Shown piece by piece: positions 17,493 through 23,972 of a stretch of 27,941 bases of DNA; position 1 is the stretch's first letter; the number at the start of each line of letters is the position of its first letter. The stretch spans positions 1-27,941 of the forward strand of contig JAQTNI010000015.1 of assembly GCA_028713935.1 (NCBI GenBank), written 5' to 3'. Under the pieces are notes generated by a model, which saw only the letters and a list, made by a program, of their open reading frames with translations, had not been told where the DNA came from and searched no databases. A program made the translations under genes and the position numbers. Origin of the DNA: Candidatus Iainarchaeum sp. (GTDB lineage: Archaea; Iainarchaeota; Iainarchaeia; Iainarchaeales; GCA-2688035).

Positions 17493-18062
17493 TTAAACCC
17501 CCTCCATTGCATACATAATTTCTGTCAAAACTTTGTCTAAATGTCTTACAGTTCCAAGTATATAGTGTTTCCTCACGCTTGGCGACTGTAGAATTAAACG
17601 TAATCCAATTTCACCGCATTGTATACTTAACTTGTTTAAGGCACCTTCGATTTCTGGGCCCATTCCCTTGAAAAACAATTGTTCTGCTGGATTTAGCGTC
17701 ACCCTGCCTTCTCCATGCGACCTGTAAGTCCTTTCAAAAATTCTCAGTATTGTTTTCTCTGCAAGAGCAAACTTTGCATTGGCCTGCAATTCTTTCTGCA
17801 GAACAGTTTTCAATAATTCATTGCAAATAATTTTTGCACCCGGCTTTTCGGCTTTTTCAAGAAGGTCTACAAAGCTTGTATCCACCCTTCTTCTTAAAGC
17901 AGGGAGTGTATATTTTGCATTGACTGCCTCCGCTACCTGCCCCAGGTAATCCAAAGTGTTCGGGCTTGGTTCAAAAAAAACTGCTTTTCTTCTGCCTCTT
18001 GCAGCTCTGTTTTCTATAATTCTTTCTCGGGTTTCTCTTGGTGTTGGTTTTCTTGTTTGCAT
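17493..18062 (-). CDS. Arg-rich hypothetical protein (189 aa) with a basic N-terminal tail, between pyrE and pyrF
   Basis: ATG start 3 nt after the pyrE stop. The N-terminus is MQTRKPTPRETRERIIENRAARGRRK. It looks predominantly helical. By hand count about 18 of 189 residues are Arg, against 4 of 206 in pyrE. Confidence 0.6.
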   Translation of the reverse strand: MQTRKPTPRETRERIIENRAARGRRKAVFFEPSPNTLDYLGQVAEAVNAKYTLPALRRRVDTSFVDLLEKAEKPGAKIICNELLKTVLQKELQANAKFALAEKTILRIFERTYRSHGEGRVTLNPAEQLFFKGMGPEIEGALNKLSIQCGEIGLRLILQSPSVRKHYILGTVRHLDKVLTEIMYAMEGV

Positions 18063-18065
18063 AAT

Positions 18066-18686
18066 TCAGCACTTTGATTTGCTCCATTCTTCCGGATTCT
18101 GAAAATAATTTGAAATGTCCTTGAATTGTGTTTCGGAAATTTTTTTGTTTTCTTTCAGGATTTTTAAAACCTCGCTGATTTTGAGGACTGAATGAAGCTC
18201 ATAGCCTTTTTCAGCAAGCTCTTTTGTTCCGCCCTGTTCCCTGTCAACCAGAACAGCAATATCTTTTACTTTCAAGCCGTTTTCCTGCAAGGGAGTTATT
18301 GCTTCAAATTTGCTTGCCCCGGTTGTAATCAAGTCATCAATGACAAGCACTGTTTCGCCTTCCTTGAAAACTCCTTCAATTGGCTTTTTTGTGCCATAAT
18401 CTTTTGCTTCTTTTCTTGGATAAATCATTGGCCAGTCAGTTTCAAGGCTCAGGGCAGTTGCAATTGCAATTGCGGCATAAGGAATTCCCGCTATCCTGTC
18501 AAATTTTAGTTTTGAAGAAATTTTTTTCAGTTCAACTGCGGTTTCTTTCAGGATTTTTGGATAACTAACCAACACCCGCAAATCAATGTAAATCGGGCTT
18601 TTTAAGCCTGATTTGAGAGTGAATTCCCCGAATTTTATTGCTCCGCATTCGAACAAATCCAAACAAATTTTTTCACTTGGTTTCAT
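18066..18686 (-). CDS. pyrE: Orotate phosphoribosyltransferase
   Basis: The PRPP-binding motif is VLVIDDLITTGASK. FGEFTLKSGLKSPIYIDLR is the typical OPRTase N-terminus. The ATG overlaps the upstream stop (ATGA), and a strong SD (AGGAGGAGA) is embedded in the upstream ORF. Confidence 0.9.
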   Translation of the reverse strand: MKPSEKICLDLFECGAIKFGEFTLKSGLKSPIYIDLRVLVSYPKILKETAVELKKISSKLKFDRIAGIPYAAIAIATALSLETDWPMIYPRKEAKDYGTKKPIEGVFKEGETVLVIDDLITTGASKFEAITPLQENGLKVKDIAVLVDREQGGTKELAEKGYELHSVLKISEVLKILKENKKISETQFKDISNYFQNPEEWSKSKC

Positions 18687-19303
18687 TTAATTCTCCTCCT
18701 GATTTTTTGCCTTACGATTCTTTGCCTTGGCTGATGCCTGGCGATTTCCTGCCGGAATAAAATTATTTTATTGCAAAGCCCCTTTAATCCGGGCAAGCTT
18801 TCCGGTTTCATTTCCGGCTCGCCTCGCCCATTAAGCGAAACTTTTATCTTGGAAAGCAATTTTCCTGATTTTTTTGGGCCCATTCTTGTGGCTGCCGCAT
18901 TAAGGCCAAAGCCTTTCGCTGCCCACTCGCGGGCAAAACTGTCCGCTTTCCACTTTTGTGCAGGATTAAGGGAAAGGCCTGTTACTTTTTTATAAAGCGC
19001 AGCAGAGTATTGCTCAAGAATTTTTCTTATTCTCAAAGCAGCCTGTATTTCACTGTAACGCAGTTTTGCCTTCTCAGCTTCTCTTATATTTCCGCTTGCA
19101 GTTTTTTTCTGGATAAAATCGCTTAAAAAAGAAAGCTGTTTTGCTGCAAGCCCCTTGAACTCGTTCATTTCTCCCGGCTTGAAAGTATAAGTTTCTTCTG
19201 TGATAAGCCTTTCAAAAACAGAAGTCACAAAAGCGCTGTCAGTGCCAAGAAGCCTGCCAAGCAAGCCGAGCAGCAAATCAACATTGCCTTTTTCATTAAC
19301 CAA
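18683..19303 (-). CDS. Arg-rich hypothetical protein (206 aa) with a basic C-terminal tail, upstream of pyrE
   Basis: TTG start preceded by gagtgg. The C-terminus is FRQEIARHQPRQRIVRQKIRRRIK. About 17 of 206 residues are Arg. It shares LNPA[EQ] and MGP[EK] blocks with the 189-aa ORF. Confidence 0.55.
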   Translation of the reverse strand: MVNEKGNVDLLLGLLGRLLGTDSAFVTSVFERLITEETYTFKPGEMNEFKGLAAKQLSFLSDFIQKKTASGNIREAEKAKLRYSEIQAALRIRKILEQYSAALYKKVTGLSLNPAQKWKADSFAREWAAKGFGLNAAATRMGPKKSGKLLSKIKVSLNGRGEPEMKPESLPGLKGLCNKIILFRQEIARHQPRQRIVRQKIRRRIK

Positions 19304-22430: not shown

Positions 22431-23328
22431 GCGCAATTCCCACCAGTTCTTTCACGCTTTTGTAGCTGTTTGCTTTCATCCATTCCTGCATTTCTTCACA
22501 AACTTTTTTGAAAACACCCGTGCCTTGATAATAAATCCCGCTTCCGATTCCAATTGCTGTTGCGCCTGCCTGCATCAATTCAATTGCATCGCGCCCATTG
22601 CTTACTCCTCCAAGCCCAATAATCGGGATTTTTACTGCCTCAAAAATATCCCAGATGCATCTCACTGCAATTGGCCTTATTGCAGGCCCGCTTATTCCGC
22701 CTTTTTTAAAGTGCAGGACTGGCTTGTGCGCCTCAATGTTTATGAGCATTCCCTGCACAGTATTGATTGCGCAGATTGCGTCAGCGCCCGCAGCTTCGCA
22801 GGCTTTTGCAATTTCTGAAATATTCAGCGCCTGTGGCGTCAGTTTTGCAATCAGCGGAATTTCTCCAATTTCTTTTTTTACTGCTGAAATAACAGAAGCT
22901 CCCGAATCAGCGTGGCATCCAAAAAGCTGGCCATGCATTTCCGAATTTGGGCAGGAAATATTCACTTCAACCATTGCTGGTTTTTTTTCTGCAATTGCCT
23001 TTGCAACTTCCACAAATTCTGAAACATTTGCCCCGTAAATTGATGCAATTACAGGCACTGGGCTTTTTTTTAGCAATTCAAATTCTTCTTCAATTTCCTT
23101 ATAGCCAGGGCTTGGCAGGCCAACCGCATTCAATAATCCGTGTTCCCAGACAGCAACAGTTGGATTGTTATGGCCTTGCCTTTCCTTTGGGCCAACGCTT
23201 TTCATTGTGACAGCGCCTGCGCCTGAATTTGCCGCCCTTAAAAGCAGTTCAGCATTTGTCCCCAGGATTCCGGAAGCAAGCACAGTGGGATTCTTCAGTT
23301 CAATTCCGGCAAAAACAGTTGAAAGCAT
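22423..23328 (-). CDS. pyrD: Dihydroorotate dehydrogenase (class 1B) catalytic subunit
   Basis: LKNPTVLASG, VEVNISCPN, AINT, GGISGPAIRPIA and IGLGGV are classic DHODH motifs. Confidence 0.9.
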   Translation of the reverse strand: MLSTVFAGIELKNPTVLASGILGTNAELLLRAANSGAGAVTMKSVGPKERQGHNNPTVAVWEHGLLNAVGLPSPGYKEIEEEFELLKKSPVPVIASIYGANVSEFVEVAKAIAEKKPAMVEVNISCPNSEMHGQLFGCHADSGASVISAVKKEIGEIPLIAKLTPQALNISEIAKACEAAGADAICAINTVQGMLINIEAHKPVLHFKKGGISGPAIRPIAVRCIWDIFEAVKIPIIGLGGVSNGRDAIELMQAGATAIGIGSGIYYQGTGVFKKVCEEMQEWMKANSYKSVKELVGIAHE

Positions 23329-23330
23329 TT

Positions 23331-23972
23331 TTATCTTCTCCTTCTTGCTTTTACTGGCTTTCTGACTGAAGACCCGATTTTGCGCATTTGTAAACGCAAT
23401 CTCCGATGTAGGGCTCTGTTGGCCGTGCGGCGTTTACCATAAAGAGATGGGCTCCCCAGCCTTGTTGCCCCGAGAAAGTCTAGTTTTGCTTCTCTTGTTT
23501 TATTTGTGTATGATGCAGATGCAAGCAAAGCCCCCAAAGAAAGCTTTGCAAATCCAATTTGTTCAAAGATTTTTTTAACGCAGCTGATGCTCATTCCACT
23601 GTCAGTCCATTCTGTTAGAAGCAAAACTTTTTGTCCCTTGCTTTGCATTAAACTTGGCATTGCTATTGAAAGTTCTTTTTCTAATCCAGAATAATCAAAA
23701 GTTCTAAGTCGCTTGTCAGTTAGGTAATCTGTTGGGGAATAATCCAAATCCATTCCGGCAAATTTTTTTACCCTGTTTCCGATTGCAAACATTCTTGGCA
23801 ATGGCTTGCCAGGGTTTAAATTTGCCCATGCAGGTTTCAGCAAGTCCGCAATAGGCCTTGCGCTTCTCCCCTCAAGAATTATAAATCCAATTTTTTCCCT
23901 TTTTATAAAACCAATTAATTTTCTTGTCGCAGCCTGCAGTTGCTCTGTTTCTATCTCAGAATCCGATGGCAT
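23331..23972 (-). CDS. Arg-rich hypothetical protein (213 aa) with a phosphoribosyltransferase-like core and a highly basic C-terminal tail
   Basis: The ATG at 23972 lies 20 nt after the pyrI stop; the track start at 24050 would overlap pyrI. GFIILEGRSARPIADLL and KVLLLTEWTDSGMSISCVKKIFEQIGF resemble the type I PRT strand-loop-helix elements, with a degenerate PRPP motif. The tail is GKRRTANRALHRRLRLQMRKIGSSVRKPVKARRRR. Confidence 0.55.
   Translation of the reverse strand: MPSDSEIETEQLQAATRKLIGFIKREKIGFIILEGRSARPIADLLKPAWANLNPGKPLPRMFAIGNRVKKFAGMDLDYSPTDYLTDKRLRTFDYSGLEKELSIAMPSLMQSKGQKVLLLTEWTDSGMSISCVKKIFEQIGFAKLSLGALLASASYTNKTREAKLDFLGATRLGSPSLYGKRRTANRALHRRLRLQMRKIGSSVRKPVKARRRR

Follow-up and report, generated by a model that had tools for sequence, protein, structure and literature searches.

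Contig JAQTNI010000015.1 of the DPANN archaeon Candidatus Iainarchaeum sp. (Iainarchaeota) carries on its minus strand a de novo pyrimidine operon in which further open reading frames (ORFs) stand between the biosynthetic genes. The gene order, taken from the ORF list and Pfam, is carB-pyrB-pyrI-X1-pyrD-pyrK-X2-pyrC-X3-X4-pyrE-X5-pyrF-X6-AMP phosphorylase, which bears out the order and the pyr identities given in a preliminary description of the sequence. X1 to X5 denote the five ORFs singled out in that description, and X6 is a sixth inserted ORF added here. The host was analysed from the window alone, i.e. the whole 27,941-nt stretch; L-numbers refer to related loci found elsewhere and P-numbers to the proteins found.

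The operon is cut by the window end within carB, which encodes the large chain of carbamoyl-phosphate synthase (25414-27921, minus strand as for all genes of the operon; Pfam CPSase_L_D2/D1/D3 and MGS), and continues with pyrB (24448-25401; OTCace_N, OTCace) and pyrI (23993-24451; PyrI, PyrI_C). X1 (23331-23972) encodes 213 aa from an ATG within an ORF that reaches 24050 and was assigned through an HGPRT-like phosphoribosyltransferase (PRTase) profile. It is followed by pyrD (22423-23328; DHO_dh) and pyrK (21621-22436; DHODB_Fe-S_bind, NAD_binding_1, FAD_binding_6), for which the junction sequence suggests an ATG at 22430, overlapping the pyrD stop, as the likely start. X2 (21003-21599; 198 aa), to which AlphaFold and Foldseek give a kinase-like fold, precedes pyrC (19717-21006; Amidohydro_1). 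Between pyrC and pyrE (18066-18686; Pribosyltran, NCBI name orotate phosphoribosyltransferase) lie X3 (19339-19716; 125 aa with a basic N-terminal tail), which has positional homologues after pyrC, and X4 (18683-19303; 206 aa from a TTG start), a singleton absent from L102 and L001. X5 (17493-18062; 189 aa, all-helical with a basic N-terminal tail) has a homologue before pyrF in L084, and the probable start of pyrF itself (16790-17512; OMPdecase) is the ATG at 17491, judging from N-terminal alignment with relatives. X6 (16421-16780; 119 aa), which is not Arg-rich and is absent from L084, L085, L088 and L089, separates pyrF from the AMP phosphorylase gene (14892-16388; Glycos_trans_3N, Glycos_transf_3, PYNP_C).

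Judged by their sequence, the X ORFs are real, co-directional and tightly coupled cistrons. The junction details reported previously are all present on the sequence: ATGA overlaps join X2 to pyrC and X4 to pyrE, the ATG of X3 is immediately 3' of the pyrC TGA, the Shine-Dalgarno (SD) sequence of pyrE (AGGAGGAGA) lies within the codons for the RRR of the X4 tail, and that of pyrF (GGAGGGGG) lies inside the final X5 codons. That the X ORFs are genes is supported by the improbability of their open frames (a base-frequency calculation puts the chance of a stop-free frame of ~200 codons, 206 for X4, at ~1e-6 in the local base composition), by the keeping of the reading frame in homologues of four of the five ORFs X1-X5 and by ratios of nonsynonymous to synonymous substitution rates (dN/dS) below 1. 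Furthermore, the X3-X4 arrangement was recovered in two independent Logan assemblies (SRR22315509 and SRR22315506), the longer of which runs on through pyrE into the start of X5, and it is therefore not an assembly artefact.

No curated family in Pfam, NCBIfam, PHROGs or PADLOC covers the X ORFs at threshold. Pairwise comparison revealed no similarity among the five proteins that would make them mutual paralogues, and X DNA did not prove to be a copy of other window or relative-locus sequence in any frame. A single family uniting X4, X5 and an Arg-rich ORF of L087 through a 'FER...LxPxE...FKG' motif was also considered and rejected (hhalign probability <1%, Smith-Waterman z ~1).

Presence, absence and selection among related operons

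About ten related operons were collected through a pyrC genome scan, a pyrE metagenome scan and look-ups of exact proteins; the window's proteins were then mapped onto them and the gaps read. Three of them (L085, L088 and L086), with 59-77% identity to the window in their pyr genes, are compact operons with junctions of 10-40 nt and without any X gene that their contigs could show: L085 is without all six insertions, L088 without X3-X6, which is all that its contig could show, and L086 without X3 and X4. Other relatives carry some of the insertions. L002 reads pyrI-pyrD-HAD-pyrK-X2-pyrC-X3, with X2 63% identical, X1 absent and a HAD hydrolase gene between pyrD and pyrK, while L094 reads pyrI-X1-pyrD-HAD-pyrK-pyrC, with an X1 orthologue 74% identical at the same site and X2 absent. 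L001 (pyrK-X2-pyrC-X3-pyrE) has an X2 that is 48% identical and no X4; L102 (pyrC-X3-pyrE, then HepT) has an X3 that is 56% identical and no X4, and its pyrE product is 94% identical in amino-acid sequence. L084 reads pyrC-pyrE-[HepT/MntA]-X5-pyrF, X3 and X4 being absent. Among genes unrelated to the X set, an MscS channel gene lies between pyrI and pyrD in L085, and a SLOG protein is encoded before AMP phosphorylase in L089 (Pfam-confirmed; X5 absent) and in L087 (assigned by sequence resemblance).

For every X gene there is a close relative with the complete pyr set that does without it. The insertions had been taken as long-established, a view contradicted by this mosaic of presence and absence, in which X4 is absent even where pyrE is 94% identical; the tight coupling of the X genes is due largely to duplicated junction sequence, not to age. 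The mosaic, together with the other genes at the same sites, shows that the junctions of this pyr operon are hot spots of gene gain and loss, of which the window carries the largest load.

The X genes are under weak purifying selection. dN/dS is 0.25 for X1 against L094, 0.32-0.34 for X2 against L002 and L001, and 0.5-0.7 for X3 against L102, where the flanks give 0.06-0.13; the pyr genes of the same genome pairs lie at 0.06-0.18. The synonymous rates (dS) of X1 and X2 are about those of their flanks, so these two genes have been inherited along with the operon since those genomes split.

Several features of the related loci were recorded alongside. In L084 (3222-3853, minus strand) a HepT/MntA nucleotidyltransferase toxin-antitoxin pair (HepT, PF01934, E=6e-32) lies on the strand opposite to the operon, between pyrE and the X5 homologue, and in L102 a partial HepT gene (1567-1680) occupies the matching site after pyrE, before the contig ends. 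The 3' end of the L102 pyrE is itself broken at ~1485-1530 by a ~45-nt insert with hairpin potential (AACTTTGCGATGCCTCGCAAAACCGAAGGTTTTGCAAGG), which gives an early stop and leaves the original C-terminal codons (PEEWSKARQ*) after the insert. The pyrC of L002 (7779-9076) is present as two overlapping ORFs, through a frameshift or an assembly error. Two unrelated basic ORFs also stand at pyr junctions: P0060, a 174-aa ORF with 19% Arg after pyrK in L087 (6959-7483), and P0062, 92 aa with 25% Arg+Lys after pyrF in L089 (1217-1495). Basic junction ORFs thus recur in the Iainarchaeota clade.

Footprints at the insertion borders

X4 is bordered by a direct repeat of ~29 nt. The left copy (19320-19348) consists of the 3' end of X3 plus the spacer, AAGGCAATAATAGAATAGCAAGGCAAAAA, and the right copy (18704-18728) lies within the 3' end of X4, where it encodes part of the basic tail HQPRQRIVRQKIRRRIK and reads AAGGCAA----AGAATCGTAAGGCAAAAA; 23 of the 25 aligned positions are identical, with one 4-nt gap. 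The pair was also reported by an independent repeat search, and shuffling gave p=0.001-0.004, although this value, like the other flank-repeat statistics, comes from mononucleotide shuffles of short, purine-rich sequences. L102 offers an exact empty site for X4, and the X3 tail and spacer there can be aligned to the final ~50 nt of X4. The tail of X4 is accordingly the duplicated X3 tail, spacer and pyrE SD sequence read in frame, and the stop codons in the duplicated sequence were lost through the 4-nt deletion. X4 itself is a recent insertion.

The ~19-nt spacer between pyrI and X1 (23973-23992) holds a remnant of the pyrD 5' end, ACTGTTTGCAGGAATT (repeat copy 23975-23988), which matches pyrD codons 4-10 with a shuffle p of ~0.01 and whose copies were again found by the independent repeat search. 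The corresponding spacer in L094 reads GAATTG-TTTGCAGGAATT, i.e. the pyrD start codon plus codons 6-9. At the other border, a weaker alignment pairs the final ~35 nt of X1 with the end of pyrI and the spacer at the L002 empty site. For X4 the duplicated junction sequence measures ~30 nt, and in all it may reach 60-90 nt. In relatives, the HAD gene has no flank repeat other than the ATGA...ATGA at its borders. Either Campbell-type integration of a small circle sharing homology with the junction, or insertion at a staggered break, would fit as the mechanism.

Footprints of this kind raise the question of whether the X genes are leftovers of Iainarchaeota mobile elements, viruses or plasmids, integrated at the junctions and since trimmed to single harmless co-directional genes. 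The direct repeats at X4 and X1 resemble att sites or target-site duplications, and the atypical codon usage of the X genes (below), their fast evolution and their narrow distribution are in keeping with such a source, as are the HepT/MntA pair in the pyrE|pyrF junction of L084, at least HepT after pyrE in L102, and the small hairpin insert in the L102 pyrE. Meanwhile, no transposase or integrase domain was found in any X protein (Pfam, NCBIfam, PHROGs), the repeat search revealed no terminal inverted repeats at the X genes, no PHROG family was matched at E<0.06, IMG/VR held no relatives of X1, X2, X4 or X5, and tblastn of X3, X4 and X5 found no relatives among GenBank phages. DPANN viruses are poorly sampled, so the viral-search negatives weigh little. 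A mobile origin of this kind is unlikely overall, if still a serious candidate.

The inserted proteins and their composition

The preliminary description called the inserted ORFs orphans, a label that does not apply to X1 or X2. An exhaustive phmmer search placed X1 in an archaeal family of HGPRT-like PRTases that numbers at least 42 cluster representatives (E<1e-3), and X1 appears to be a divergent type I (HGPRT-like) PRTase-domain protein with an Arg-rich C-terminal extension. Alone, it matched no Pfam model and reached the NCBIfam HGPRTase model only at E=0.03 (14 bits vs a cutoff of 150). A 41-member family profile searched against the PDB matched HGPRTs at E=2.7e-5 over the phosphoribosyl pyrophosphate (PRPP) loop and the DFVG strand, with many PRTases below 1e-2, and Pribosyltran (PF00156) is matched by 14 of the 41 members (best E=4.6e-6). 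The family consensus of the PRPP motif is vliLdEyvesGeT; in X1 (LLLTEWTDSGMS) the first acidic residue is replaced by Thr, and the second acid, the Asp and S-G-x-S are retained, as are ...TEWTDSGMS... and ...LDFLG.... The closest relative of X1 has lost the final Thr of the motif. X1 resembles the HGPRT/HPRT 6-oxopurine PRTases (PF00156) in length, in the PRPP loop, following strand and DFVG motif of the family profile, and in an N-terminal strand-loop (...G-x-S-A-x...) in the place of the pyrophosphate loop, but differs from them in the Thr at the first acidic position and in an additional helix or tail, rich in Arg, at the C terminus. All members of the family share the basic C-terminal region.

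In L095 (203-1460) a 49%-identical X1 homologue is followed immediately by a gene resembling ribose-1,5-bisphosphate isomerase (eIF-2B family; named by eye from the translation), an enzyme of the pathway that partners AMP phosphorylase. Homologues at greater distance are solitary, with primase/PCNA, radical-SAM or TYW2-type genes as neighbours. Within X1, the stretch 23749-23762 (KFAGMD) is the same as the pyrD 5' end at 23300-23313 (VFAGIE) in 13 of 14 nt, against an expected chance count of ~0.05-0.1; this may be a coincidence or a trace of gene conversion.

X2 is predicted to be a minimal protein-kinase-like fold (residues ~55-198) behind a disordered basic N-terminal tail (1-54). Its homologues comprise three clusters in 5.8e9 proteins plus the L001 copy, and one, 43% identical, is found in another archaeon outside a pyr operon. 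In the AlphaFold model, which like that of X5 was built on a very shallow alignment, the core (55-198) has a predicted local distance difference test score (pLDDT) mostly of 70-91, falling below 70 at a few blocks, and its top Foldseek matches in the PDB and BFVD are all kinases (TBK1, RIP1, RIO2, ArkI and CtkA; probability <=0.99, E ~0.003-0.01, template modelling score 0.47). Inspection of a three-sequence alignment found Lys72/73, an acidic residue at 87, Asp173 and Asp192 (ILDLG) conserved, and no Asn at the expected catalytic-loop spacing. The sequence falls below the curated cutoff for a kinase family (Pfam Kdo, PF06293, E=0.1, 12.5 bits vs 21.3). With the atypical kinases (RIO, Kdo/WaaP and the archaeal RNA kinase ArkI, PDB 7vnx, PMC9095486) X2 shares a length of ~200 aa, a fold match that includes RIO2, ArkI, CtkA and eukaryotic-type kinases, a conserved beta3 Lys, a helix-C acidic residue and a DxG at the DFG position. 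Unlike them, it is sub-threshold in sequence, is without the catalytic-loop Asn and has a 54-residue disordered basic N-terminal tail, and its family is found in only four genomes.

The nature of X1 and X2 allows a reading in which the X genes are functional accessories of nucleotide metabolism recruited by selection, forming with HAD and SLOG a nucleotide super-operon that ends in AMP phosphorylase. X1 would then be a salvage PRTase or a PRPP- or nucleotide-binding protein, and X2 a predicted kinase of small molecules, nucleotides or RNA. The HGPRT match of the X1 family and its PRPP-loop-like and DF(V/L)G motifs speak for this, as do the invariant residues of the X2 kinase fold, the presence of HAD and SLOG genes at further junctions of related operons, the X1 homologue beside the isomerase-like gene and the purifying selection on X1 and X2. 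On the other side, the distant homologues of X1 and X2 stand among replication, tRNA-modification or unannotated genes, X1 is without the first acid of the PRPP motif and its closest relative without the final Thr, X2 is without the catalytic-loop Asn, nothing links X3-X5, the MscS channel or HepT/MntA at the same junctions to nucleotides, and all X genes are dispensable in close relatives. Recruitment by selection is a possible explanation, though on balance a somewhat unlikely one. That X1 and X2 act in nucleotide salvage is plausible but unproven.

Homology searches are weak for X3, X4 and X5, and X3 and X5 appear to be clade-restricted proteins. X3 has homologues after pyrC in L102, L002 (33% identity) and L001 (26%; Smith-Waterman z=11.8); profile matches of X3 to designed 'Pizza' beta-propellers were left unused, their E-value being the sum of weak repeats of which no single stretch passes. 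X4 is a singleton cluster with no match in Pfam, NCBIfam, PHROGs, PADLOC, the PDB, IMG/VR or GenBank phages. X5 has one homologous cluster, in L084: identity is 32% for the full-length P0054, counted along the entire alignment, and 36% for the 146-aa form P0052. The X5 model is a low-confidence helical bundle (pLDDT 66), and a fold search with it yielded nothing beyond generic or designed bundles. The L084 homologue varies at a G-run (~4325-4345): the full-length protein has 194 aa (P0054), and a form of 146-149 aa (P0052, P0053, P0056) ends at the run on 10 contigs, a difference in homopolymer length that stems from a true frameshift polymorphism or from an assembly error made repeatedly. The only homologue found for X6, P0004, is 44% identical over ~80 aa and has an AAA/RFC-like ATPase part behind.

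Composition sets X1-X5 apart from the rest of the operon, as had been claimed. Arg makes up 8.3-11.2% of their residues vs 1.7-5.0% in the operon's other genes (pyrE 1.9%, pyrF 2.1%), their isoelectric points are 9.8-10.6 and their G+C content is the same as that of other genes. Compared with the 26 other ORFs of the window the Arg content differs at p = 3e-4 (Mann-Whitney), and ribosomal protein L21e (8.7%) is the only one of these to overlap the X range. Synonymous codon usage also differs, both from the pyr genes (chi2=138, df=41, p=2e-12) and from the other window genes (p=4e-7), and AGA:AGG is 44:31 in the X genes vs 18:67 in pyr genes and 22:60 elsewhere in the window. The strongly basic terminal tails are real as well: they are 38-57% basic vs 12-19% in the remainder of each protein, and basic residues are significantly clustered at the termini, albeit with optimistic p-values as the tails were picked post hoc.

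The data do not, for all that, support the Arg enrichment as a functional signature. Amino-acid content correlates with the random-codon expectation from local base composition at r=0.84 in the X genes vs 0.61-0.67 in other genes; observed over expected Arg is 0.83-1.09 in X1-X5 vs 0.06-0.72 in other window genes (L21e 0.90); and Arg positions are no better conserved between orthologues than the average. The X genes look Arg-rich because proteins at base expectation stand beside Arg-depleted housekeeping genes, and their richness in Arg is mostly the absence of the host's Arg depletion, which marks genes as foreign, young or under weak constraint.

Youth in the strict sense is one option for X3, X4 and X5, which could be proto-genes, arisen de novo or diverged beyond recognition, from expanded junction DNA that includes duplicated and frame-shifted pieces of neighbouring genes and spacers. 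The composition of the X genes lies at the random expectation, with AGA and AGG in the same proportion as A and G; X4, a singleton, has a C-terminal tail that is read-through of a duplicated spacer; X3 has a dN/dS of 0.5-0.7, and its start is identical in 24 of 30 positions to out-of-frame pyrE codons 13-21 (p=0.018); and X5 has a low-confidence model without a fold match and a homologue truncated at a G-run on 10 contigs. Yet X1 and X2 share the compositional signature and have ancient folds, so the signature is no proof of de novo origin, the X3-pyrE resemblance is not found in the X3 orthologues, and no source sequence for X DNA was found in the window or the related loci. Given the improbable 206-codon frame of X4, its ~575-nt body must already have been coding or have come from elsewhere. 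A proto-gene origin is improbable for these genes.

The functions proposed previously were RNA-binding regulation of the operon, here read as PyrR-like, scaffolding of a pyrimidine metabolon and an embedded defence module. X1 shares with PyrR, the bacterial attenuator that binds pyr mRNA, the PRTase fold, a basic surface or tail (conserved in its family) and location in a pyr operon, and the clustering of basic residues at the termini might also be read this way. However, the X1-family profile matched PyrR chains in the PDB at E=0.12-0.17 vs 2.7e-5 for HGPRT, which does not identify X1 as a PyrR attenuator; X1 is archaeal, most of the family members examined lie outside pyr operons, and the window stops short of the operon leader. 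A dedicated pyr function is not supported, given that the more distant homologues of X1 and X2 lie outside pyr operons and that relatives have unrelated genes, a toxin-antitoxin pair among them, at the same junctions, and each X gene is missing in some close relative with a full pyr set. The Arg positions are not preferentially conserved, and part of each C-terminal tail is a by-product of spacer read-through. As to defence, PADLOC returned no family at E<=1 for any of the six proteins. Regulation, scaffolding or defence is accordingly a very improbable account of the X genes.

Some observations concern other genes of the window. The AMP phosphorylase frame is split by one in-frame TGA (15306-15308), seen on read-through translation, at a Cys conserved in L084, L087 and L089 (QKSCELAG vs EKS*KIAG in the window), and the downstream frame is intact and conserved. 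A nonsense mutation or a sequencing error would explain it, as would, with less probability, a selenocysteine/Cys pair. Elsewhere in the operon TGA serves as an ordinary stop, and scanning the window with Rfam and for tRNAs revealed no selenocysteine insertion sequence element, riboswitch or tRNA gene. The sole Rfam match in the window is a 5S rRNA gene (5929-6044, minus strand; RF00001, 64.9 bits). When two Iainarchaeota contigs are set aside, pyrC has its best relatives in the genome collection among Bacteroidota (35-41% identity), plus one Methanoperedens (40%); this list, shaped by the peptide patterns of the scan, hints at a bacterial-type dihydroorotase, possibly horizontally acquired.

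Probable gene capture at operon junctions

Of the proteins at this locus, two are new and divergent members of known superfamilies and three are unknowns restricted to the clade; the evidence gives no support to a new pyrimidine regulatory or metabolon system. The data are probably best explained by an ordinary de novo pyrimidine operon of an Iainarchaeota archaeon, the junctions of which captured accessory genes one at a time that now ride on the operon's transcription. The absence of some or all X genes from close relatives argues for recent gene capture and against a conserved new pyrimidine machine. The explanations weighed above overlap with one another.

All captured genes run in the direction of the operon; each takes up the whole of its gap and has its start, stop and SD sequence in common with the genes on either side. 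Because no intergenic space is left, the captured genes would be transcribed from the operon promoter and translated by coupling. At X4 and X1 the insertion duplicated the junction (the tail of the upstream gene, the spacer and the SD sequence, and for X1 also the head of the downstream gene), and the downstream copy leaves the native gene intact. The new ORF runs on through the purine-rich duplicated spacer and SD sequence, which supply the residues at the very end of each basic C-terminal tail (X4 ...PRQRIVRQKIRRRIK; X1 ...KPVKARRRR). The flanking repeats may in turn allow precise loss, which would give the mosaic pattern among relatives.

Several points weigh against capture. Duplications are detectable only for X4, where they are strong, and X1, where they are good, and X2, X5 and X6 show no flank repeats beyond ATGA. 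PHROGs, IMG/VR and phage searches gave no viral, plasmid-like or integrase signal for a source of the inserted DNA, and homology searches are weak for X3-X5. Co-transcription and translation of the X genes are inferred from the spacing. The nucleotide-related folds (X1, X2, HAD and SLOG) and the X1 homologue beside a gene named by eye as isomerase-like suggest that capture may not be function-blind. In E. coli, moreover, genes are reported to be added at operon ends far more often than they are inserted within existing operons (PMC1480536); six insertions in one operon call for a reason.

A bolder reading, put forward tentatively and with considerable doubt, is that the junctions in this clade are sites of an undescribed single-gene capture that duplicates tens of bases of the junction, from the tail of the upstream gene through spacer and SD sequence to the head of the downstream one, and so makes a coupled cistron, with its start, stop and basic tail, from the junction itself. 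If true, very small, promoter-poor genomes would have a route to acquire, test, lose and possibly, as in X3-X5, give birth to genes. If the broader picture of capture holds, the locus is a compact natural record of operon gene gain and loss in streamlined archaeal genomes, with six occupied junctions in a single essential operon, precise empty sites in sister genomes, visible footprints and tails traceable to spacer read-through. It also offers two uncharacterised families for bench work, an HGPRT-like protein with an Arg-rich tail in several archaea and a kinase-like core of ~140 residues.

Among known systems, free-standing homing-endonuclease genes between conserved phage genes and att-flanked integrative elements are alike in being single genes between conserved co-directional genes that vary among close relatives, and the latter also in the direct repeats seen here at the X4 and X1 borders. 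In contrast, the X genes are without nuclease, integrase or transposase domains or inverted repeats, and their setting is a cellular metabolic operon. Another parallel lies in 'The Life-Cycle of Operons' (Price, Arkin & Alm 2006, PMC1480536), which describes how operons can change when ORFans or horizontally transferred genes are inserted beside native genes and use the native promoters for expression. As in those cases, lineage-restricted genes under purifying selection lie by native genes, and operon structure varies among close relatives. Unlike them, six internal junctions of one operon are occupied here, with turnover among close relatives, and at least two of the insertions carry junction duplications.

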